Under the pieces are notes generated by a model. It had not been told where the DNA came from, made no database searches, and saw nothing but the letters and a program-made list of their open reading frames with translations. Position numbers and translations under genes: made by a program. From positions 1,674,001 to 1,738,000 of the forward strand of contig OX597842.1 of assembly GCA_951406725.2 (NCBI GenBank): DNA of 64,000 nt, given 5' to 3'. Shown here piece by piece: positions 13,702-63,700 of the stretch. Within the stretch, counting starts at the first letter, position 1; each line of letters begins with the position of its first letter. The stretch is from Octopus vulgaris (lineage: Eukaryota).

Positions 13702-13820
13702 ACCAACTAAACATCTATCTATCTCTGTATCCTTCCATGTGTATATATATATATATATATAGTACCACTGGCGATCTTTTTTCCTCTGTCTTCCCTTCTC
13801 TGGATCTTTCCTTCTCCTAT

Positions 13821-13855
13821 GTTTCCGACGAAGAGCTCTGCTCGAAACGTTAAAC
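13821..13855 (+). ncRNA. Minimal type-I HHR-like motif (C4 core variant) in a ~190 bp element within (TA)n; second copy at 14773-14807
   Basis: GTTT-CCGACGA-A-GAGC tct GCTC-GAAAC-GTT-AAAC: stem I GTTT/AAAC, stem II GAGC/GCTC, loopless palindromic stem III. Confidence 0.65.
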
Positions 13856-14067
13856 CCTCCTTCTTCCCTTCTTTCCTGACCGTCCAATAATACTTTATTT
13901 GTTCCACGTCCTTGCGTTGTGTTTTTTGTTTTCTTGTTTGGATTAACTTTACATATATATATATATATATATATATATAGGGGAGAATTCACAAAAACAA
14001 AAGACAAAGACAGTTGGTGTAGACAACAAACAGATGTATTAGTTTAACATTCAGGAAGTGAAAAGCT

Positions 14068-14313: not shown

Positions 14314-14902
14314 TATATGTATATGTGTATATGTTTGTCTGTGCTCATCCCCTCACCAAATGTTGGCGTGTCTATGTTCCCATAACTTAGCGGTTTGACA
14401 AAAGTGATTGATGGAATTAGTACTAGGCTTACAGAGAATGAGTCCTGCGGTCAGTGTGTGTATGTGTTTGTGTGTCTGGTGTTTGCTTGACAATGGTGTA
14501 TTTATGTCCCCATAACTTAGCAGTCCAGCATAAAAGACTAATAGAATAAGAATTAGACTTACAAAGAATATGTCCTGGGGTCGTTTTTTCAACTAAAGAT
14601 TGCTCTAGCATGGCCAGAGTCAAATGACTGAAGCAAGTAAAAGAATAGAAGAATATATATATATATATTCTTTCACCATGTGTACTTCGTAAACACCAGT
14701 CGTTTTTTTTTTTTTTCTCCATCTCTTGTTGCCCACTTTGGGATCTTTCTTTCCTCTCTCTTCCTTCTTTATGTTTCCGACGAAGAGCTCCGCTCGAAAC
14801 GTCATACCTTCCTGCTTCCATATTTCCTGAGCGCCTATTAATAATAATACTGTAATTGTTCCACGTGTTGTTGTTTTTTTGTTTTCCCGTTTGGATTAAA
14901 AT

Positions 14903-16125
<1,223 letters not shown>

Positions 16126-18982: not shown

Positions 18983-20184
18983 CACACAGACATGCAGGAA
19001 GTAAATGGACACCTTTAATTTTCCAAATCTTTTATTTGATACGCAAAGCGAACAATTGAAATGTAATCGATAGGTAGGACTACATACTTTGGTATTTAGT
19101 TGACATTTCCTTTGCAGTTTTTAATTCAGAAACTCTTTTTGGCATTGGACTGATGAGCTTTGAGATTGTCTCTTGTGGAATTTCTTCCCACTTTTCATGC
19201 AACAATCGAAACAATTCAGCTTTAGATTTAGGTTTCTGTCAAGTTTTTGTATAGCTCTATCTAGTATGCTCCAAAGATTTTCAATTGGGTTCACGTTTGA
19301 TGATTGGCTTTTTGATCCCATTTTCAATCAACCATTGTTGATTCCTGTTCACTATGTGGCATGGAGCCCCATCTTCCATGAATAAAAACTCATTTTTCGT
19401 TATGTTATTGTGTGAATACATCGGAAGTAGTCCTTTCTTAAGTATTTCGAAGTATTTTCAGAGTTTATGGTTCCAACACATTCAATAAGCTCAGAACGAC
19501 TGTTGCTGATGACAGCTACCCATGCCATTACAGAGATACTGCCATGTTTCACAGTTGGTCGGAGTCGTTTCAAATCAAATTCTTGTCTGAAAATAATGCA
19601 AATCTGGGTTCATCTGAGAAAATCACTCTATCACAAAATGAACTGGATTTTTCTGACATTTTAACCCATTTCTTTCTTTTCATTATATTAAATGGTTGAA
19701 GGAGAGGTTTTCTTCTAGCTGCTCGTCCATAATACCCAAGCTTATGCAGATATGCAGCACACGTTCTGGCAATAACTTCTAGCTGTTTTGCAATGTCAGA
19801 AGTCTTTGAACAGGGTTCGTTTTCCACAATTCTCTTCAAACAGTGAAGCCTCCTTTCCGAGGGCCCAGGTTGGCTGGGACGAGAATCTGTTGATTCCTTT
19901 CCTTGGCTTTTGAATTGCACTATAATTCTATAAACAGTAGCAAGAGGAATTTGAAGATTTTCGCCTATTTTTTGCTGGCTAAGACCAGCCTCAGATTGCT
20001 CAACAATACGATCTCTTTGAAAATCTGACAGCTGTGCTGAATTTTTTGCGTGTGGCATGGTTATTTTTGCAAATGTTTAAAATAATGGCACCTGGAATGA
20101 AAAAGAATAATTACATTGTAAATTCTACACCACTAAAAACATATTAAGACAATTCTATCAGAAATTTTGAAAATTAAAGGTGTC
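18983..20184 (-). mobile_element. Decayed Tc1-family transposon
   Basis: Inverted GACACCTTTAATTTTC at 19008 and ending at 20184; outer part of the right TIR missing. Confidence 0.85.
19090..20058 (-). pseudogene. Tc1-like transposase pseudogene (frameshifted)
   Basis: N-terminal HTH (LSDFQRDRIV...IPLATVYRII), GRAARRKPLL, VIFSDE, FMEDGAPCH near 19356-19385, NPIENLW, in different frames. Confidence 0.9.
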
Positions 20185-21165: not shown

Positions 21166-22121
21166 TAAGATAGAAATAGTTTAACAACATCCTGAGTGTT
21201 TGCCCCCTTATTTAATTTTCGTATATGCATATATAGACATATATCTATATAGAGACATACTTTTTTTTTTATTAAAGCTGCAAATACATCAGTTTTGTGA
21301 TGTTTTTGTAGCTTTAATAAAAAAGCATATCACTCTACCTCTGGTATTCAAGTACTATTTTTTCCAACTTGTTTTGCATTTATGTGCTTACTTGCATGTG
21401 CATGTGTATATATATATTATACACACATATGGATATATAAATATACACATATAGATATATAGTTATATACATACAGTCATATACATACATAGGCGCAGGA
21501 GTGGCTGTGTGGTAAGTAGCTTGCTTACAAACCACATGGTTCTATGTTCAGTCCTGCTGTGTGGCACCTTCGGCAAGTGCCTCCTACTATAGTCTTGGGC
21601 CGACCAAAGCCTTGTGTGTGGATTTGGTAGACGGAAACTGAAAGAAGCCTGTCATATGTATATATATGTGTGTGTGTGTGTGTGTTTGTTCCCCTAGCAT
21701 TGCTTGACAACTGATGCTGGTGTATATATGTCAATGTAACTTAGTGGTTGGGCAAAAGAGATCGATAGAATAAGTACTAGGCTTACAAAGAATAAGACCT
21801 GGGGTCGATTTGCTTGACTAAAGGCAGTGCTCCAGCATGGCCGCAGTCAAATGATTGAAACAAGTAAAAGAATAAAAGAATACATACTTATGTGTGTGTG
21901 TATAATGGATTTTGTGCATGATGTACTATCTATTAATCAATAAAAAACTCGGAAACAGCTGTAGTGAATGAACCATTATACACCTCTTTCTTTCTCCCTC
22001 TTTCTCTCTCTCTCTTCCTCTCTCTCATTCTCTCTCTCTCTCTCTGTCTCCTTTCTCTGTGTCTCTGTTTTATCTCTGTCTCTCTTTCTTTCTCTCTCTC
22101 TCTCTCTATATATATATATGC

Positions 22122-22215: not shown

Positions 22216-22484
22216 GCATGTGTATATATATATGTATGTATATATATGTATATATGTATGTATATATATTCTTTTACTTGTTTCAGTGAAGTAAGAGGAG
22301 TATAAGAAAGTGGGGAGCACTGCCTTTAGTCAAGCAAATCGACACCAAGACTTAGTATTTGTAAGCTTAGTACCTATTCTATCAGTCTCTTTTGCTGAAC
22401 CACTAAGTTATGGGGACATAAATACACCAGCATCGGTTGTCAAGCAGTGGTTGTCAATAAATATATATATATATATATGTATAT

Positions 22485-22548
<64 letters not shown>

Positions 22549-22594
22549 GTATATGTTTTTATATATATATATATATATGTATATATATGTATAT

Positions 22595-22627
<33 letters not shown>

Positions 22628-22630
<3 letters not shown>

Positions 22631-22852
22631 GAGTAAACACATAAATGTGAAACAAGGTGGAAAAAAGAGTACTCAAATACCAGTGGTAGAGTAATATGCT
22701 TTATTTAAAGCAGCAGAAAATTCAACAAAACCTGTTACTTTGAGTTTCCTGTTGCCGTTCATCGGACAATTTTTGCAAAAACTGTCCGATGAATGGCAAC
22801 GGGAAACTCAGAGTAACAGGTTTTGTTGAATTTTCTACTGCTTTAAATAAAG
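22628..22852. mobile_element. Fold-back element: spacerless palindrome 22699-22852 plus ~70 bp unpaired tail, HHR motif in each arm; relatives at 21260-21390, 26259-26310, 51646-51845
   Basis: Arms reverse-complementary about ttttg|caaaa; CTGT-CCGATGA-atg gcaa cgg-GAAAC-tcaga-GTA-ACAG at 22782-22819. Confidence 0.8.
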
Positions 22853-22877
<25 letters not shown>

Positions 22878-22883
<6 letters not shown>

Positions 22884-23233
22884 AGGAAATGAAGAAAATG
22901 CTGACAAAATAATTTAAGTAAGGGAGAGTGTATTTAATTAGGTGAAAGTTCTTTTTACCGGTTGCGCATTTGTTATGTTTATCAAAAGATATTTTTTAAG
23001 AGAGATAGAGTTCCTTTCTGATAGATTTTTTTCTCTTATCTGATAAAAAATCTATCAGAAAGGAACTCTATCTCTCTTAAAAAATTATCTTTTGATAAGC
23101 ATAACAAATGCGCAACCGGTAAAAAGAACTTTCACCTAATTAAATACACTCTCCCTTACTTAAATTATTTTGTCAGCATTTTCTTCATTTCCTTTTTTTA
23201 TATATCACAACTTGTGTTCCACATCTCCTTTTT

Positions 23234-23235
<2 letters not shown>
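22878..23235. mobile_element. Fold-back element: ~155 bp near-perfect inverted arms, ~13 nt loop, ~30 bp tail, within (TA)n
   Basis: 22878-23031 is the reverse complement of 23045-23199 with few mismatches; HHR-like TTGATAA-GCAT aacaa ATGC-GCAAC-CG-GTA at 23092-23121. Confidence 0.8.
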
Positions 23236-23284
<49 letters not shown>

Positions 23285-23378
23285 ATATGTGTGTATATAT
23301 ATGTATATATATATATATATATATGTTTATATATGTATATGTTTATATATATGTGTGTATATATATATATATATAATA

Positions 23379-23717
23379 TAGAAAAGAGTGAAAAAACTAC
23401 AGAAGGCTTGATTTATAAGGTTAAAGAATAGTTTTAAGTCATTATGTTAGAAAAATGTTATAAAATTTTGTGTATAGTAGCATAGTTTTTGGAGAAATAA
23501 CCGGTTTCGTGTAAACTTTTCAAATTTCTCAAAATTTACACGAAACCGGTAATTTCTCCTAAAACTATGTTACTATACACAAAATTTTTCTAACATTTTT
23601 CTAACATAACGACTGAAATATATTCTTTAACCTTATAAAACAAGCCTTCTGTAGTTTTTTCACTCTTTTCTATTTTTTATACATCCAACCACATGCTTTT
23701 ACACACCAACTTTCTCT

Positions 23718-23720
<3 letters not shown>
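23379..23720. mobile_element. Fold-back element: ~137 bp inverted arms, short loop, ~48 bp tail, within (TA)n
   Basis: 23379-23515 vs 23535-23672 are reverse-complementary. Confidence 0.8.
23492..23530 (-). ncRNA. Type-I HHR motif with U3-A8 core
   Basis: GAGAAAT-TTGAAAA-GT ttac AC-GAAAC-CG-GTT-ATTTCTC; 7 bp perfect stem I, palindromic stem III. Confidence 0.7.
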
Positions 23721-23771
<51 letters not shown>

Positions 23772-25590: not shown

Positions 25591-26309
25591 GAGACATGAG
25601 CCATATCTGTTGCTTCACTGTTGCAGTTTTCCGTGTTGATAAACACACACAAACAAACACACACACACAAACATATATATATATATATATACAAAACATA
25701 TACTCACACACAGACATGTTAATACTCAGCACTCAAAGCACCCGAGTCACTCTGCTGCTTCTGTGGAATACTGCTTTCAAATTTCAGCACAAGGCCAGCA
25801 ATGTTGTGGCGGCGGGGGTGGAAATGGTTACACCATTCCCAGTACTTAACTGGTACTTAATTTATCAACCCCAAGAGGAAAAAATGCAAAGTGGATCTCA
25901 GTGAAATTTGAACTCTGATGGATGAAATGCTGATAAACATTTTGCCTGGCATGCTACCAGTTCTGCCAGCTTCCTACGTTGTTTTTGCTAAACATGAATA
26001 TATACATATATATAGGGAGAGAGAATTCACAAAAAAAAAAAGATGAAGACAGGTGGCGTAGACAACAAACAAATGTATTAGTTTAATGCTCAGGAAGTGA
26101 AAAAGTCTTTAACGTTTCGATCCTACGCTCTTCCACAGAAAGGGACACAGAAAGAAACAAGGAGAGAAAATAAAGAATGCGTAGTGGCTTGTGTATGTAT
26201 ATATATATATATATATACCCATACTGTATGTCTATATGTACATATATATATATATATGAGAAACTCAGAGTAACAGATTTTGTTGAATTTTCTGCTGCTT
26301 AAAATAAAG

Positions 26310-26333
<24 letters not shown>

Positions 26334-26340
<7 letters not shown>

Positions 26341-26663
26341 AAGGGTGAAAAGGAACACACAAGTTGATATATATGAAAAAACAAGTCAAGATAGAAAATG
26401 CTAAAATAATTTTATAAAGAACATTTCAAAGGTAGAAACAAGGAAAATGCCACTTATATTTGAACACTATACAAATATTCCTTTAAAAACACTTTTCTTT
26501 TAATTTTTCTAAATTTAATTATTTAATCGTTACAGTTGAAAAGGTCTCAAAATGACCGAAACCGGTACTGGAATGTTCTTTATAAAATTATTTTAGCATT
26601 TTCTATCTTGACTTGTTTTTTCATATATATCAACTTGTGTGTTCCTTTTCACCCTTATACATA
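26334..26663. mobile_element. Element with ~90 bp terminal inverted repeats within (TA)n, containing an HHR motif at 26533-26570
   Basis: 26334-26425 vs 26572-26663 inverted; CAG-TTGAAAA-GGTC tcaaaat GACC-GAAAC-CG-GTA-CTG. Confidence 0.75.
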
Positions 26664-30374: not shown

Positions 30375-31130
30375 TAATGATAATGATAATAATAATAATA
30401 ATGATAATGAAATAATTGTATACAGTGCTCAGGTGCACCACATCTTGTCAAAAGTGCGTATAAAGCATATGCAGTAATGTACAAATGTCTGGAAAGCGAA
30501 CAGTGTATGAGTCAGATACATGCTTGCGGTGTGTATGGAGGGGAAAAAATCAGGTGTAGTGTTGGCGAATCTCAGAAGGATGGAAGTTTTGAAGGATGCA
30601 GTGCTCCAACAACTAACAACTGATGCCGGTAGTTTGTTCCATGCTTCAGCTTGTGTATGGAGGGGAGAAAATCAGGTGTAGTGTTGGCGAATCTCAGGAA
30701 GCATGGAAGTTTTGAAGGATGCAGTGCTCCGACAACTAACAACTGATGCCGGTAGTTTGTTCCATGCTTCAGCTTGTGTATGGAGGGGAGAAAATCAGGT
30801 GTAGTGTTGGCGAATCTCAGGAAGCATGGAAGTTTTGAAGGATGCAGTGCTCCGACAACTAACAACTGATGCCGGCAGTTTGTTCCATGCTTCAGCAACT
30901 CTTAGCGTGAAAAATGTTTCCGAAAGTCATGGGAGCTGTGCTGTTTTCTGATTTTGTAAATATGTCCATGGGTGTTAGACAGGTGGAGTTTGAAAAGGTG
31001 CTCAGAGTTATTGTTAGCAAGATGGTTAATAATTTTATGGGTGTCTGCCAAGTCAGCTGCCAGACATCGGAGTTTCAATGTATCCATGCCCAGGAAAGAA
31101 GTAAAGCGTTCAGAATATGGCAAATGCCTG
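30375..31130 (-). mobile_element. CR1-like LINE 3' end with (ATT)n tail and a triplicated 123 bp segment
   Basis: PYSER...LGMDTLKLRCLAADL...THGHIYKIRK...RKHF followed by RVAEAWNKLP; 123 bp units begin near 30530, 30652, 30775. Confidence 0.8.
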
Positions 31131-39914: not shown

Positions 39915-42900
39915 GTGATGGTGATGGTGATGATGATGATGACAATAATTACATGAATAACAGTAAATAATAACAAATTTGTAGTTGTAGTAATAGTGGT
40001 GGTGGTAGCTGTAGTATTGGTAGTAGTAGGAGGAGGAGGTAGTAGTAGTGGTTGTATGTGGTGGTAGTAGCAGTAGTAGTAGTCGTAGGTGGTGGTGGTG
40101 GTAGTAGCTGCAGTAGGTGGTAGTGATGGTAGTAGTAGCTGGTGGTGGTGGTGGTGGTGGTAGTAGTAGTAGTGAGTTGTGGTGGTAGTGGTAGTAGTCA
40201 GTTATGGTGATGGTGGTAGTAGTAGTAGGGGGTGACGGTGGTAGTAGTGGCAGTAGTAGTAGGTGGTGGTAGTAGTAGTAGTCAGATGTGGTGGTGGTGG
40301 TGGTGGTAGTAACAGCAGTAGTGGTAGTAGTAGGTAGCAGTGGTAGTAGTAATAATAGTAGTAGTAGGTGGTGGTGGTGGTGGTAGTAGGTAGCAGTGGT
40401 AGTAGTAGTAGGTAGCATTAGTAGCAGTAGTAGTGGTAGTGGTGTTAGTATTAGTGGTGGTGGTGGTAGTAATAATGTTTGTGGCAGTGGTAAAAGTATT
40501 AGCAATGGTAATACTCTCAGTGGTAGTGGTGGAGGTAGTATTAGTGAAAGTGGTTGTAGTAGTAGTCGAAGTAGTAGTAATTGTAGTTACAGTAATAGTA
40601 TCAGTGGTGGTTGTAGCAATGGTAGTAATAATAGTTGTGGAGTTAGTATTAGTGGTATTAGTAGTAGTGGTACTGGTTGTAGCATTAGTAGTAGTAGTTG
40701 TAGTAGTAGTAGTAGTAGTAGTAGTATAGCAAAAATGGTGTTAGTAGTGGAGGCAGTGTTAGTGGTGGTGGTGGTAGTAGTAGAAGTAGGTGGTGGTAGC
40801 AGTATAGGTGGTATAGTTATAGCAATAATGGTGTTGGTAGTGGTGGTGGTGGTAGTAGTGGTAGTAGTAGCTGTAGGTGGTGTTGGTAGTGGAGGCAGTG
40901 TTAGTGGTGGTGGTAGTAATGTTAGTAGTAGCTGTAGGTGGTGTTGGTAGTGGAGGCAGTGGTGGTGGTGGTGGTAGTTGTAGCAGTAGGTGGTGGTAGC
41001 AGTAGTAGTAGTTATAGCAAAAATGATGTTGGTAGCGGAGGCAGTATTGGTGGTGGTAGTAGTGGTAGTAGTAGCCACAGGTGATGTTGGTAGTGAAGGC
41101 AGTGTTAGTGGTGGTGGTGGTGGTAGTAATAGTAGCTGTGGGTGGTGGTAGCAGTAGTAGTAATAGCAATAATGTGTTGGCAGTGGTGGTGGTGGTGACA
41201 GTAGTGGTAGTAGTAGTAGTAGTAGTGGGTACTGGTAGTGGAGGCAGTGTTAGTGATGGTGGTGGTGGTAGTAGTAGTAGCCACAGGTGGTATTGGTAGT
41301 GAAGGCAGTGTTAGTGGTAGTGGTGGTGGTAGTAGTAGCAGTAGGTGGTGGTAGAAGTAGTAGTAGTTATAGCAATAATGTGTTGGCAGTGGTGGTGGTG
41401 GTAGTAGTAGCTGTAGGTGGTGTTGGTAGTGGAGACAGTGTTAGTGATGGTGGTGGTGGTAGTAGTAGAAGTTATAGCAATAATGTGTTGGCAGTGGTGG
41501 TGGTGGTAGTAGTAGCTGTAGGTGGTGTTGGTAGTGGAGACAGTGTTAGTGATGGTGGTGGTGGTAGTAGTAGAAGTTATAGCAATAATGTGTTGGCAGT
41601 GGTGGTGGTGGTAGTAGTAGCTGTAGGTGGTGTTGGTAGTGGAGACAGTGTTAGTGATGGTGGTGGTGGTAGTAGTAGAAGTTATAGCAATAATGTGTTG
41701 GCAGTGGTGGTGGTGGTAGTAGTAGCTGTAGGTGGTGTTGGTAGTGGAGACAGTGTTAGTGATGGTGGTGGTGGTAGTAGTAGAAGTTATAGCAATAATG
41801 TGTTGGCAGTGGTGGTGGTGGTAGTAGTAGCTGTAGGTGGTGTTGGTAGTGGAGACAGTGTTAGTGATGGTGGTGGTGGTAGTAGTAGAAGTTATAGCAA
41901 TAATAGTGTTGGTAGTGGAGGCGGTGGTGTTGGTGGTGGTAGTAGTGGTAGTAGTAGCTGAAGGTGGTGTTGGTAGTGGAGGCAGTGTTAGTGGTGGTGG
42001 TGGTGGTAGTAGTAGTAGGTGGTGGTAGCAGTAGTAGTTATAGCAATAATGCTATAGTGGTAGTGGAGGTGGTAGTAGTGGTGGTAATGGTAGTAGTAGC
42101 AGTAGTAGTAGTTATAGCAATAATGGTGTTGGTAGTGGTGTTGGTAGTGGTGCTGGTAGTAGTAGTTATAGTAGTAGTAGTAGTTATAGTAATAATGGTG
42201 TTGGTAGTGAAGGCAGTGTTGGCGGTGGTAGTAGTGGTAGTAGTAGCTGTAGGTGATGTTGGTAGTGAAGGCAGTGTTAGTGGTGGTGGTGGTGGTAGTA
42301 ATAGTAGCTGTGGGTGGTGGTAGCAGTAGTAGTAATAGCAATAATGTGTTGGCAGTGGTGGTGGTGGTGACAGTAGTGGTAGTAGTAGCTGTAGGTGGTA
42401 CTGGTAGTGGAGGCAGTGTTAGTGATGGTGGTGGTGGTAGTAGTAGTAGCCACAGGTGGTATTGGTAGTGAAGGCAGTGTTAGTGGTGGTGGTGGTGGTG
42501 GTGGTAGCAGTAGTAGTAGTTATAGTAATAATGTGTTGGCAGTGGTGGTCGTGGTAGTAGTGGTAGTAGTAGCTGTAGGTGGTGTTGGTAGTGGAGTCAG
42601 TGTTGGTGGTGGTAGTAGTAGCCACAGGTGTTGTTGGTAGTGGAGGCAGTATTGGTGGTGGTGGTGGTGGTAGCAGTAGTAGTAGTTATAGTAATAATGT
42701 GTTGGCAGTGGTGGTCGTGGTAGTAGTGGTAGTAGTAGCTGTAGGTGGTGTTGGTAGTGGAGGCAGTGTTGGTGGTGGTAGTAGTAGCCACAGGTGTTGT
42801 TGGTAGTGGAGGCAGTATTGGTGGTGGTGGTGGTGGTAGCAGTAGTAGTAGTTATAGTAATAATGTGTTGGCAGTGGTGGTCGTGGTAGTAGTGGTAGTA

Positions 42901-45900
42901 GTAGCTGTAGGTAGTGTTGGTAGTGGAAGCAGTGTTGATGGTGGTAGTAGTAGCCACAGGTGTTGTTGGTAGTGGAGGCAGTATTGGTGGTGGTGGTGGT
43001 GGTAGCAGTAGTAGTAGTTATAGTAATAATGTGTTGGCAGTGGTGGTCGTGGTAGTAGTGGTAGTAGTAGCTGTAGGCAGTGTTGGTAGTGGAGGCAGTG
43101 TTGGTGGTGGTAGTAGTAGCCACAGGTGTTGTTGGTAGTGGAGGCAGTATTGGTGGTGGTGGTGGTGGTAGCAGTAGTAGTAGTTATAGTAATAATGTGT
43201 TGGCAGTGGTGGTCGTGGTAGTAGTGGTAGTAGTAGCTGTAGGTGGTGTTGGTAGTGGAAGCAGTGTTGATGGTGGTAGTAGTAGCCACAGGTGTTGTTG
43301 GTAGTGGAGGCAGTATTGGTGGTGGTGGTGGTGGTAGCAGTAGTAGTAGTTATAGTAATAATGTGTTGGCAGTGGTGGTCGTGGTAGTAGTGGTAGTAGT
43401 AGCTGTAGGTAGTGTTGGTAGTGGAGGCAGTGTTGGTGGTGGTAGTAGTAGCCACAGGTGTTGTTGGTAGTGGAGGCAGTATTGGTGGTGGTGGTGGTGG
43501 TAGCAGTAGTAGTAGTTATAGTAATAATGTGTTGGCAGTGGTGGTCGTGGTAGTAGTGGTAGTAGTAGCTGTAGGTGGTGTTGGTAGTGGAAGCAGTGTT
43601 GATGGTGGTAGTAGTAGCCACAGGTGTTGTTGGTAGTGGAGGCAGTATTGGTGGTGGTGGTGGTGGTAGCAGTAGTAGTAGTTATAGTAATAATGTGTTG
43701 GCGGTGGTGGTCGTGGTAGTAGTGGTAGTAGTAGCTGTAGGTGGTGTTGGTAGTGGAGGCAGTGTTGGTGGTGGTAGTAGTAGCCACAGGTGTTGTTGGT
43801 AGTGGAGGCAGTATTGGTGGTGGTGGTGGTGGTAGCAGTAGTAGTAGTTATAGTAATAATGTGTTGGCAGTGGTGGTCGTGGTAGTAGTGGTAGTAGTAG
43901 CTGTAGGTAGTGTTGGTAGTGGAGGCAGTGTTGATGGTGGTAGTAGTAGCCACAGGTGTTGTTGGTAGTGGAGGCAGTATTGGTGGTGGTGGTGGTGGTA
44001 GCAGTAGTAGTAGTTATAGTAATAATGTGTTGGCAGTGGTGGTCGTGGTAGTAGTGGTAGTAGTAGCTGTAGGTAGTGTTGGTAGTGGAGGCAGTGTTGG
44101 TGGTGGTAGTAGTAGCCACAGGTGTTGTTGGTAGTGGAGGCAGTATTGGTGGTGGTGGTGGTGGTAGCACTAGTAGTAGTTATAGTAATAATGTGTTGGC
44201 AGTGGTGGTCGTGGTAGTAGTGGTAGTAGTAGCTGTAGGTGGTGTTGGTAGTGGAAGCAGTGTTGGTGGTGGTAGTAGTAGCCACAGGTGTTGTTGGTAG
44301 TGGAGGCAGTATTGGTGGTGGTGGTGGTGGTAGCACTAGTAGTAGTTATAGTAATAATGTGTTGGCAGTGGTGGTCGTGGTAGTAGTGGTAGTAGTAGCT
44401 GTAGGTAGTGTTGGTAGTGGAGGCAGTGTTGATGGTGGTAGTAGTAGCCACAGGTGGTGTTGGTAGTGGAGGCAGTATTGGTGGTGGTGGTGGTGGTAGC
44501 AGTAGTAGTAGTTATAGTAATAATGTGTTGGCAGTGGTGGTCGTGGTAGTAGTGGTAGTAGTAGCTGTAGGTGGTGTTGGTAGTGGAGGCAGTGTTGGTG
44601 GTGGTAGTAGTAGCCACAGGTGTTGTTGGTAGTGGAGGCAGTATTGGTGGTGGTGGTGGTGGTAGCACTAGTAGTAGTTATAGTAATAATGTGTTGGCAG
44701 TGGTGGTCGTGGTAGTAGTGGTAGTAGTAGCTGTAGGTGGTGTTGGTAGTGGAAGCAGTGTTGGTGGTGGTAGTAGTAGCCACAGGTGTTGTTGGTAGTG
44801 GAGGCAGTATTGGTGGTGGTGGTGGTGGTAGCAGTAGTAGTAGTTATAGTAATAATGTGTTGGCAGTGTGGTGGTCGTGGTAGTAGTGGTAGTAGTAGCT
44901 GTAGGTGGTGTTGGTAGTGGAGGCAGTGTTGGTGGTGGTAGTAGTAGCCACAGGTGGTGTTGGTAGTGGAGGCAGTATTGGTGGTGGTGGTGGTGGTAGC
45001 AGTAGTAGTAGTTATAGTAATAATGTGTTGGCAGTGGTGGTCGTGGTAGTAGTGGTAGTAGTAGCTGTAGGTAGTGTTGGTAGTGGAGGCAGTGTTGGTG
45101 GTGGTAGTAGTAGCCACAGGTGTTGTTGGTAGTGGAGGCAGTATTGGTGGTGGTGGTGGTGGTAGCAGTAGTAGTAGTTATAGTAATAATGTGTTGGCAG
45201 TGGTGGTCGTGGTAGTAGTGGTAGTAGTAGCTGTAGGTGGTGTTGGTAGTGGAGGCAGTGTTGGTGGTGGTAGTAGTAGCCACATGTGGTGTTGGTAGTG
45301 GAGGCAGTATTGGTGGTGGTGGTGGTGGTGATAGTAGTAGCAGTAGTAGTAGTTATAGTAATAATGTGTTGGCAGTGGTGGTCGTGGTAGTAGTGGTAGT
45401 AGTAGCTGTAGGTGGTGTTGGTAGGTGGAGGCAGTGTTGGTGGTGGTAGTAGTAGCCACAGGTGGTGTTGGTAGTGGAGGCAGTATTGGTGGTGGTGGTG
45501 GTGGTGATAGTAGTAGCAGTAGTAGTAGTTATAGTAATATGGGTTGGCAGTGGTGGTCGTGGTAGTAGTGGTAGTAGTAGCTGTAGGTGGTGTTGGTAGT
45601 GGAGGCAGTGTTGGTGGTGGTAGTAGTAGCCACAGGTGGTGTTGGTAGTGGAGGCAGTGTTGGTGGTGGTGGTGGTGCTGATAGTAGTAGCAGTAGTAGT
45701 AGTTATAGTAATAATGTGTTGGCAGTGGTGGTCGTGGTAGTAGTGGTAGTAGTAGCTGTAGGTGGTGTTGGTAGTGGAGGCAGTGTTGGTGGTGGTAGTA
45801 GTAGCCACAGGTGTTGTTGGTAGTGGAGGCAGTATTGGTGGTGGTGGTGGTGGTAGCAGTAGTAGTAGTTATAGTAATAATGTGTTGGCAGTGGTGGTCG

Positions 45901-48199
45901 TGGTAGTAGTGGTAGTAGTAGCTGTAGGTGGTGTTGGTAGTGGAGGCAGTGTTGGTGGTGGTAGTAGTAGCCACAGGTGGTGTTGGTAGTGGAGGCAGTA
46001 TTGGTGGTGGTGGTGGTGGTGATAGTAGTAGCAGTAGTAGTAGTTATAGTAATAATGTGTTGGCAGTGGTGGTCGTGGTAGTAGTGGTAGTAGTAGCTGT
46101 AGGTGGTGTTGGTAGTGGAGGCAGTGTTGGTGGTGGTAGTAGTAGCCACAGGTGGTGTTGGTAGTGGAGGCAGTATTGGTGGTGGTGGTGGTGGTGATAG
46201 TAGTAGCAGTAGTAATAGTTATAGTAATAATGTGTTGGCAGTGGTGGTCGTGGTAGTAGTGGTAGTAGTAGCTGTAGGTGGTGTTGGTAGTGGAGGCAGT
46301 GTTGGTGGTGGTGGTGGTAGTAGTAGCAGTAGTAGTAGTTATAGTAATAATGTGTTGGCAGTGGTGGTCGTGGTAGTAGTGGTAGTAGTAGCTGTAGGTG
46401 GTGTTGGTAGTGGAGGCAGTGTTGGTGGTGGTAGTAGTAGCCACAGGTGGTGTTGGTAGTGGAGGCAGTATTGGTGGTGGTGGTGGTGGTGATAGTAGTA
46501 GCAGTAGTAGTAGTTATAGTAATAATGTGTTGGCAGTGGTGGTCGTGGTAGTAGTGGTAGTAGTAGCTGTAGGTGGTGTTGGTAGTGGAGGCAGTGTTGG
46601 TGGTGGTAGTAGTAGCCACAGGTGGTGTTGGTAGTGGAGGCAGTGTTGGTGGTGGTGGTGGTGCTGATAGTAGTAGCAGTAGTAGTAGTTATAGTAATAA
46701 TGTGTTGGCAGTGGTGGTCGTGGTAGTAGTGGTAGTAGTAGCTGTAGGTGGTGTTGGTAGTGGAGGCAGTGTTGGTGGTGGTAGTAGTAGCCACAGGTGG
46801 TGTTGGTAGTGGAGGCAGTATTGGTGGTGGTGGTGGTGGTGATAGTAGTAGCAGTAGTAGTAGTTATAGTAATATGGGTTGGCAGTGGTGGTCGTGGTAG
46901 TAGTGGTAGTAGTAGCTGTAGGTGGTGTTGGTAGTGGAGGCAGTGTTGGTGGTGGTAGTAGTAGCCACAGGTGGTGTTGGTAGTGGAGGCAGTATTGGTG
47001 GTGGTGGTGGTGGTGATAGTAGTAGCAGTAGTAGTAGTTATAGTAATATGGGTTGGCAGTGGTGGTCGTGGTAGTAGTGGTAGTAGTAGCTGTAGGTGGT
47101 GTTGGTAGTGGAGGCAGTGTTGGTGGTGGTAGTAGTAGCCACAGGTGGTGTTGGTAGTGGAGGCAGTATTGGTGGTGGTAGTAGTAGCCACAGGTGGTGT
47201 TGGTAGTGGAGGCAGTGTTGGTGGTGGTAGTAGTAGCCACAGGTGGTGTTGGTAGTGGAGGCAGTGTTGGTGGTGGTAGTAGTAGCCACAGGTGGTGTTG
47301 GTAGTGGAGGCAGTATTGGTGGTGGTGGTGGTGGTGATAGTAGTAGCAGTAGTAGTAGTTATAGTAATATGGGTTGGCAGTGGTGGTCGTGGTAGTAGTG
47401 GTAGTAGTAGCTGTAGGTGGTGTTGGTAGTGGAGGCAGTATTGGTGGTGGTGGTGGTGGTGATAGTAGTAGCAGTAGTAGTAGTTATAGTAATAATGTGT
47501 TGGCAGTGGTGGTCGTGGTAGTAGTGGTAGTAGTAGCTGTAGGTGGTGTTGGTAGTGGAGGCAGTGTTGGTGGTGGTAGTAGTAGCCACAGGTGGTGTTG
47601 GTAGTGGAGGCAGTGTTGGTGGTGGTGGTGGTGGTAGCAGTAGTAGTTATAGCAATAATGCTATAGTAGTAGTGGAGGTGGTAGTAGTGGTGGTAATGGT
47701 AGTAATAGTTATAGCAATAATGCTATAGTAGTAGTGGAGGTGGTAGTAGTGATGGTGGTGGTAGCAGTAGTAGTAGGTGGTGGTAGCAGTAGTAGTTATA
47801 GCAATAATGCCATAGTGGTAGTGGAGGTGGTAGTAGTGGTGGTAATGGTAGTAATAGTTATAGCAATAATGCTATAGTAGTAGTGGAGGTGGTAGTAGTG
47901 ATGGTGGTGGTAGCAGTAGTAGTAGGTGGTGGTAGCAGTAGTAGTTATAGCAATAATGCTATAGTAGTAGTGGAGGTGGTAGTAGTGGTGGTAATGGTAG
48001 TAATAGTTATAGCAATAATGCTATAGTAGTAGTGGAGGTGGTAGTAGTGATGGTGGTGGTAGCAGTAGTAGTAGGTGGTGGTAGCAGTAGTAGTTATAGC
48101 AATAATGCCATAGTGGTAGTGGAGGTGGTAGTAGTGGTGGTGCTGGTAGTAGTAGTTATAGCAATAATGGTGTTGGTAGTGGTGGCGGTGGTGGTGCTG

Positions 48200-51472: not shown

Positions 51473-51844
51473 CAGACACAATTGGTGCACGGATTGTGTT
51501 TATAAGCCATTTAAAAACACAGAAAAACCGTTAGATACACTTCAACATTTAAATTTAATTTGTCAATATATTTCCATCGCTTTGAGACCACGACCTGTTC
51601 AATTGACAAATATTCCGTGCTGCATATATATATATATATATATATACTTTATTTAAAAGCAGCAGAAATTTAACAAAAGGTGTTACTCTGAGTTTCACAT
51701 TCCTGTTCGTTGGACAGTTTTGTTAGCAAAACTCCGAGTAACAGCTTTTGTTAAATTTCTGCTGCTTATATATACTATATTGCTCTACCTCTGGTATTTG
51801 AGTACACTTTTTCCCACCTTGTTTCACATTTATGTGTTTACTTT

Positions 51845-51886
<42 letters not shown>

Positions 51887-63583: not shown

Positions 63584-63587
<4 letters not shown>

Positions 63588-63700
63588 GTGAAAGAAGGTT
63601 TGAAAATGCAATTTTAAAAGATGTTTCTTTTAAAATTGCATTTTCAAACCTTCTTTCATATATAATTCCACTCGTGCGGTACCTTACAACTCCACTTTGT
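63584..63700. mobile_element. Small fold-back element with ~36 bp tail within (TA)n
   Basis: tgaaagaaggtttgaaaatgcaattttaaaaga-tgtt-tcttttaaaattgcattttcaaaccttctttca, then an unpaired tail. Confidence 0.7.

Follow-up and report, generated by a model that had tools for sequence, protein, structure and literature searches.

Three probable head-to-head PLE insertions stacked in one (TA)n tract of the Octopus vulgaris genome

Introduction

How did three different palindromes with hammerhead-like motifs come to lie side by side in a single (TA)n tract of the Octopus vulgaris genome? The tract was found in a stretch of 64,000 nucleotides (hereafter, the window; assembly GCA_951406725.2, contig OX597842.1, positions 1,674,001 to 1,738,000), at positions 22628-23720 of that stretch. 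A first-pass annotation read the palindromes as non-autonomous, PLE-derived hairpin elements that target (TA)n and would fold, if transcribed, into dsRNA masking their own ribozymes. In the parts of the PLE literature available to us, an inverted 5'-truncated copy with a tail is the published footprint of PLE insertion (PMC8557442, PMC3846280), the insertion mechanism is described as unresolved (PMC8557442), and minimal PLE hammerheads, among them a U3-A8 variant, are reported in opposite-strand pairs 100-700 bp apart (PMC4209133). We conclude that three protein-coding PLE families probably inserted here independently, each leaving a heavily 5'-truncated head-to-head copy, and that every hairpin likely formed during insertion from just one template.

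Three palindromes with one-sided tails

Self-comparison places the palindromes at 22699-22852 (element 1), 22878-23199 (element 2) and 23379-23672 (element 3), with 144 of 154, 312 of 324 and 270 of 297 columns, respectively, matching the reverse complement of the same segment; the arm-to-arm match is 91–96%, and the arms differ at 4-9% of columns. The first-pass description is confirmed in these coordinates, in the spacers, which consist of TA/TG repeats alone, and in the unpaired tails, expected at 30-70 bp on one side of each palindrome (Table 1). In the search for a host gene, 65 of the 137 candidate frames of the window were scanned; apart from a Tc1-like remnant and two DUF matches below the cutoff, nothing was found. 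Taken as a single locus, this is ordinary retrotransposon debris.

Table 1. Features of the stacked elements (window coordinates)
Feature	Position	Strand	Remark
(TA)n tract left of element 1	22457..22627	.	target of element 1
Element 1 tail, ~70 nt	22628..22698	-	in parent runs straight into 5' end of ORF
Element 1 tail-bearing arm, 77 nt	22699..22775	-	3' end of Hydra-like PLE
Element 1 tail-less inverted arm, 77 nt	22776..22852	+	ends at fixed TA-like site of family
Element 1 hammerhead, type I minimal, U4C core	22782..22819 (descriptor pass 22786-22815)	+	predicted cut after 22815
(TA)n spacer, elements 1/2	22853..22877	.	
Element 2 tail-less inverted arm	22878..23038	-	extends 167 nt into parent
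Element 2 hammerhead-like motif, tail-less arm	22956-22985	-	U3-A8 core
Element 2 tail-bearing arm, 157 nt	23039..23199	+	3' end of putative Neptune-type PLE
Element 2 hammerhead-like motif, tail-bearing arm	23090..23123 (descriptor match 23092-23121)	+	U3-A8 core, 4-bp stem II, GCAA for GAAA
Element 2 tail, 34 nt	23200..23233	+	
Imperfect (TA)n/(TG)n spacer, elements 2/3	23234..23378	.	
Element 3 tail-less inverted arm	23379..23530	-	162 nt of parent
Element 3 complete minimal hammerhead, left arm	23492..23530 (descriptor match 23499-23523)	-	U3-A8 core
Element 3 tail-bearing arm, 148 nt	23531..23678	+	3' end of putative Neptune-type PLE
Element 3 tail, 41 nt	23679..23719	+	
(TA)25 right of element 3	23720..23769	.	

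The claim of a hammerhead-like motif near each centre holds in part: all three elements contain such motifs, but these are imperfect, with U4C in element 1, GCAA in element 2 and a complete motif in just one arm of element 3, and those of element 2, one per arm, sit ~53 nt off the palindrome axis. A type I hammerhead descriptor that admitted the U4C and GCAA variants detected four motifs in 22628-23720; four were reached in 0 of 500 dinucleotide shuffles and one in 2 of 500, a lenient control because the descriptor allowed variants that had already been noticed. In the Rfam scan of this segment, there was no hammerhead match at E<=1, and the best matches were to sub-threshold miRNA models.

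Element 1 passes the descriptor on the plus strand only; its tail-bearing arm has kept the hammerhead core, with stems II and III mutated, and canonical CUGA is present in 14 of the 28 hammerhead motifs of sampled family-1 copies. The plus-strand motif of element 2 has a contiguous stem I of 2 bp, and GCAA replaces GAAA in 23 of the 24 family-2 copies that hold the motif (the remaining copy has ACAA), which sets this family apart from the Neptune/Nematis PLEs. The hammerhead of element 3 combines a 7-bp stem I and a 2-bp stem II with a palindromic helix III, and the tail-bearing arm of this element lacks the 5' half of the motif. The type I layout, palindromic helix III, U3-A8 variant and opposite-strand pairing are shared with the minimal PLE hammerheads, whereas U4C and GCAA variants are not mentioned in the available text of PMC4209133 and stem II is only 2-4 bp long here. 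By folding, all four motifs fall inside a long stem (-118 to -245 kcal/mol), and the ribozymes are predicted to be buried in it if the hairpin is transcribed. Minimal PLE hammerheads are described in the same text as weak in vitro and expected to need dimers (PMC4209133).

ORF-bearing parents of the three elements

Each element is a dispersed repeat: across the 2.8-Gb genome, 1262, 1444 and 1899 candidates were found for elements 1, 2 and 3, respectively (40 scored for each), and the exact tail 33-mers of families 1 and 2 occur at least 4497 and at least 667 times. The parents were located by tracing longer copies upstream, and the arms of all three elements proved to be the 3' ends of ORF-bearing PLEs in the same genome, which directly supports the PLE origin suggested at first pass. 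In these parents, the stretch corresponding to the tail comes after the pLTR core and leads on to the ORF. A partial tandem forms the pLTR in L221, L222, L141 and L142, an upstream partial copy was called at 28 of 30 ORF-start loci, and the hammerhead motif is present, at the motif level, in the pLTR.

The parent of element 1 (copies L221 and L222) has an ORF of 727 aa, in the translations of which the motifs RWK, DKT, CxCX5C, CxxC and CxH were recognized by eye, with a C>F change in the L221 linker. This protein had no Pfam match and its single-sequence AlphaFold model reached a pLDDT of 34; in its Atlas neighbours at 0.96-0.99, HTH_animal, GIY-YIG or RVT_1 is found in a share of the members. 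The five motifs, the C-terminal EN and the (TA)n target (29 of 30 family-1 copies) are shared with the Hydra clade, including Hydra-1_Obim, as described in the available part of PMC8557442, and it is by these motifs that we provisionally assign the parent to that clade. The element 1 hammerhead has almost the layout of the published Hydra-2_aMil motif (PMC8557442) and is unlike the one listed for Hydra-1_Obim, which makes this a separate family; a search for sequence motifs of family 1 in the portion of the Craig et al. 2021 supplement available to us found none (PMC8557442). Hydra clade PLEs are generally shorter than 3 kb, a tendency rather than a rule according to the same source (PMC8557442), whereas the element 1 unit spans 3352-3362 bp (3.35 kb), with a long 3' UTR. 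The family is a recently active Hydra-like family.

The parents of element 2 (copies L224/L185, with RT, linker and EN) and element 3 (copies L094/L106/L141-143) match PF00078 (RVT_1) above the cutoff and a GIY-YIG profile below it (E 0.043), and both carry a CX4CxxC linker ahead of a C-terminal GIY-YIG domain. The element 3 parent additionally contains GxKF and DKG; a BLASTP comparison with it gave a marginal match (E 0.009). The linker and, for element 3, the GxKF and DKG motifs are shared with Neptune/Nematis PLEs in the accessible text of PMC8557442; judged by the linker motif (CX2-5CxxC), which is common to both clades, elements 2 and 3 fit Neptune/Nematis, and on the protein sequences we provisionally treat them as Neptune-type sister families. 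Over 479 aa, the two parent proteins share 57.6% identity, while the DNA ends barely align; the palindromes, initially called unrelated, thus differ as DNA, but elements 2 and 3 are related. Naiad identity was rejected given that the endonuclease would be N-terminal, whereas EN is C-terminal here.

Two observations on the parents are worth recording in their own right. The 5' region of the element 1 parent is 99-100% identical across 40 scored loci (L229-L258; 231 candidates). Copies L141-L143 (G000 C25, C16, C3) represent a young sister family of element 3, with many near-identical copies, open frames of at least 843 aa and a hammerhead stem II that differs by a compensatory pair.

Fold-back architecture across the families

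Because the top matches lean toward the query's own centre, copies were sampled by the tail alone (n=30, 30 and 17 for families 1, 2 and 3). Family-1 copies were picked by exact pattern, the tail words being too common for similarity search, and that of family 2 contains, besides the window copy, three loci of an earlier set and three neighbouring long copies. Fold-backs make up 19/30 of the family-1 copies (20 with an 11-bp one missed by the script), 20/30 in family 2 and 7/17 in family 3, that is, about two thirds of the samples of families 1 and 2; the other copies are single arms, partial inversions or long copies. The tail end adjoins a TA run in 29/30, 29/30 and 17/17 copies (75 of 77 in total), compared with 11.3% of flank positions, in support of the (TA)n targeting that had been proposed, and the tail-less arm ends at the TA-like site of the respective family in 17/19, 20/20 and 6/7 fold-backs. 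The target-site duplication is hidden by the (TA)n itself; one of at least 12 bp was seen at L191. This locus is a family-1 fold-back in a non-TA microsatellite, with an inverted arm that extends 22 nt into the tail.

Fold-backs form a size continuum in the genome, from 11 bp to kilobases, and the same layout with coding sequence occurs at 1.5-3.5 kb in L147, L148 and L159. Palindrome centres differ between copies, and the arms are cut back independently. The tail arm is longer, shorter or equal within 4 nt in 5, 5 and 9 fold-backs of family 1 and in 6, 4 and 10 of family 2, a balance which indicates that neither arm was simply copied from the other. Overlaps at the junction range from 2 to 13 nt and reach at least 2 nt in 13/19 (family 1) and 10/20 (family 2). 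Private mutations are present in both arms 13 times in 44 family-2 copies (0.06 expected by chance) and five times in 48 family-1 copies (0.2 expected), counts from which duplicates were imperfectly removed; both arms of a copy also share subfamily mutations, far above chance.

Proposed origin of the hairpins

Taken together, the varying centres, the fact that either arm can be the longer one and the private mutations common to the two arms suggest that a hairpin most likely takes shape as the element inserts, with a single template serving both arms. Under the scheme that we propose, the GIY-YIG endonuclease would nick both strands of (TA)n, a sequence that reads alike both ways; the first nick would prime reverse transcription at the tail end and the second, 34-70 nt farther inward, at a TA-like site, after which both cDNAs would stop early and be joined head to head via microhomologies of 2-13 nt. 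We infer both the two-nick priming and the joining; L1 twin priming provides an analogy for priming from two nicks. Every insertion would leave TA on each side, i.e., a fresh target, so that stacking requires no link between the families. Another of the five tested families lies within ~500 nt at 2 of 76 tail-anchored loci, and we infer that a triple stack is uncommon yet expected somewhere among thousands of copies with a common target. The ribozymes would be inherited pLTR motifs, and the stubs are most likely inert.

Some of the observations would also follow from later events. One-sided deletions at palindrome centres are a known phenomenon and would yield unequal arms as well, and gene conversion between the arms would account for shared private mutations. 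Furthermore, arm lengths are correlated (Spearman 0.87 in family 2 and 0.42 in family 1), a pattern not expected from independent truncation by itself, and near-equal arms are found in 9/19 fold-backs of family 1 and 10/20 of family 2.

The layout corresponds to the insertion unit of EN+ PLEs (PMC8557442, PMC3846280), with an inverted, 5'-truncated head-to-head copy, a tail at one end, a microsatellite target and a palindrome or overlap at the junction. As far as the available text of these sources goes, the differences are that the unit is shrunk here to 115-350 bp, is non-coding and is the majority form in two families, that the tail of element 1 is ~70 nt long as opposed to the published 30-40, and that a fixed stopping point is seen here but not described there.

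A fixed stopping point and a possible short-RNA template

Two-nick priming from one template does not by itself explain the pile-up of arm lengths in families 1 and 2. Among 15 family-1 tail arms that reach 79 nt, nine stop at 79-85, compared with 0/24 upstream pLTRs of ORF-bearing copies (Fisher p=2e-5); for the 79-98 window, the counts are 11/15 and 3/24 (p=3e-4). In family 2, 16 of the 22 arms reaching 152 stop at 152-168. These windows were picked after viewing the data, and few copies, from a limited set of subfamilies, were sampled. At 898 loci, two arms meet head to head at the family-1 stop point. There is no pile-up among the 17 tail-anchored copies of family 3.

An intrinsic stop in the sequence should act on both passes, and a short RNA starting within the pLTR is therefore the reading that we prefer for the pile-up. 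As an addition to the two-nick scheme, we tentatively propose, while giving it somewhat less than even chances, that short copies of families 1 and 2 derive from short RNAs (~155 and ~200 nt) that start inside the pLTR, with RT, primed at either nick, reaching the 5' end of the RNA and running off; on this view, the stubs would form a non-autonomous, SINE-like layer that is mobilized in trans. Single-arm copies L203 and L178 end at the family-1 point as well, both stop points resemble the initiator consensus, and a TSS inside the pLTR has been reported for Penelope and Chlamys-3. This proposal has to be weighed against the post hoc windows and the behaviour of family 3, the frequency of initiator-like words in AT-rich DNA, and the similar appearance that a protein roadblock on the RNA would have (both points lie 1-4 nt before a YAG). 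In addition, full-length copies do not begin at the stop point, which accordingly is not the 5' end of their template. Two other explanations of the pile-up were considered. That it marks where the full-length mRNA begins was rejected, given that upstream pLTRs span <10 to >1480 nt, with none at 79-85. A splice junction is not supported, since the AG and the preceding 1-4 nt are retained in the arms, a pyrimidine tract is missing from family 2, and the AG itself is missing from L017, an older copy of family 1.

Alternative origins of the hairpins

Unlikely, but still to be taken seriously, is the formation of each hairpin by snap-back, whereby the 3' end of a single cDNA would fold back at a short palindrome and be extended by the enzyme as far as the TA-like site, with later deletions making the arms unequal. 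Self-priming is the explanation given for such junction palindromes in the available text of Arkhipova 2013 (PMC3846280), many centres indeed lie on short palindromes (CTAG; TATCWGATA), and the two arms share private mutations; the correlated arm lengths somewhat favour snap-back with later deletion, and also gene conversion. Against this stand the about equal frequencies of copies with the longer tail arm and with the longer tail-less arm, the scattered and unequal centres of family 3, and the presence, in L217 and L188, of different parent stretches on the two sides of the centre.

It appears improbable that the hairpins are non-autonomous elements which spread as complete units through transcription and re-insertion. 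Near-identical full-length hairpins do occur among the top matches, but these were chosen for likeness to the query, and the centres vary in the tail-anchored samples. No top match combines the three variants seen in the tail arm of the window copy, whereas 12 carry one each; recurrent asymmetric variants are few and mostly at CpG or homopolymer edges; and there is no ADAR-type hyper-editing in 111 copies, none of which exceeds four A>G changes. This test is blind to a master with identical arms. Given that the centres vary, the arms are cut independently and the layout extends to kilobase-scale copies with coding sequence, the initial reading as non-autonomous hairpin elements is unsupported as worded.

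An assembly fold-back artefact, or an origin from MITE or Foldback DNA transposons, is very improbable: no public contig spans the locus, but the arms are mismatched and the tails one-sided, the tail-less end is joined to TA in contigs from 4/4 public sequencing runs and arm-to-arm joints with other centres occur in contigs from 3/4, and the parents encode RT, not transposase. MITE and Foldback transposons have fixed symmetric termini and a cognate transposase; the one-sided tail, the RT parent and the length continuum do not fit that description.

Other repeats in the window

The same design had been noted at 21260, 26334, 51646 and 63584. A hairpin with a tail is indeed present at 63584-63700, but there, as at 21260 and 51646, no motif passes the descriptor, and at 26334 both arms include the tail. 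The repeats at 21260-21392 and 51646-51845 are older relatives of element 1, and 26260-26310 is an older or partial copy of the same family, all without a passing hammerhead. The segment 26335-26662 is a PLE end with inverted arms separated by a ~140-bp spacer, and its tail region is 78% like element 2 over 59 nt; a clean U3-A8 hammerhead with a 4-bp stem II (26536-26567) lies in the spacer, unmasked by the stem. The hairpin at 63584-63700 belongs to a fifth family (1533 candidates), a longer copy of which (L171, 2700-2950) has a U3-A8 hammerhead-like motif by eye.

Another TA-flanked repeat family is represented by single arms at 13761-13960 (and ~14761-14913), with 85-92% copies in several loci and a hammerhead-like motif with a U4C core and 4-bp stems at 13825-13851. 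The remaining repeats are a Tc1/mariner transposase remnant on the minus strand (19573-20076; HTH_Tnp_Tc3_2, E 4e-7, just below the cutoff), a 166-bp tandem array of ~28 copies with 94% match, based on GTA/GTG triplets (42428-47228), and a 123-bp tandem repeat of three copies with 97% match (30530-30896).

Implications

Non-LTR retrozymes are likewise non-coding, hammerhead-bearing and PLE-related, but, in the available text (bioRxiv 10.64898/2026.07.22.740005), they are head-to-tail tandem monomers, whereas the stubs are head-to-head parent ends; identity with retrozymes was rejected for want of head-to-tail monomers each with a hammerhead. In the literature searched, which excludes Repbase and most subscription papers, we found no report of such minimal hairpins or of a fixed stop in cephalopods. 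The stubs are further cases of the known PLE footprint, the unusual sign being the fixed stop in two families, perhaps a trace of copying from short RNA.

With respect to dsRNA, the idea of Dicer substrates is weakened because a mollusc survey, in its available part, reports no endo-siRNA pathway (PMC12479628), and ADAR editing is plausible only for transcribed copies. The stubs could be mis-annotated as MITEs or microRNA hairpins. The population of tiny copies is nonetheless useful, with its two fixed, putative priming sites, independently cut arms that share private mutations, and a fixed stop in two families. It is possible, although we hold it to be doubtful, that two PLE families belonging to different clades have a short pLTR-started RNA copied from both nicked (TA)n strands, and that between hundreds and thousands of near-perfect hairpins of 150-350 bp, each masking its own ribozyme, were written in this way. 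If so, the start site of PLEs and the two priming sites could be read from the stubs at base resolution; the stubs would also report, at genome scale, on how PLEs insert, a mechanism still unsolved, and would constitute a stock of ADAR substrates.
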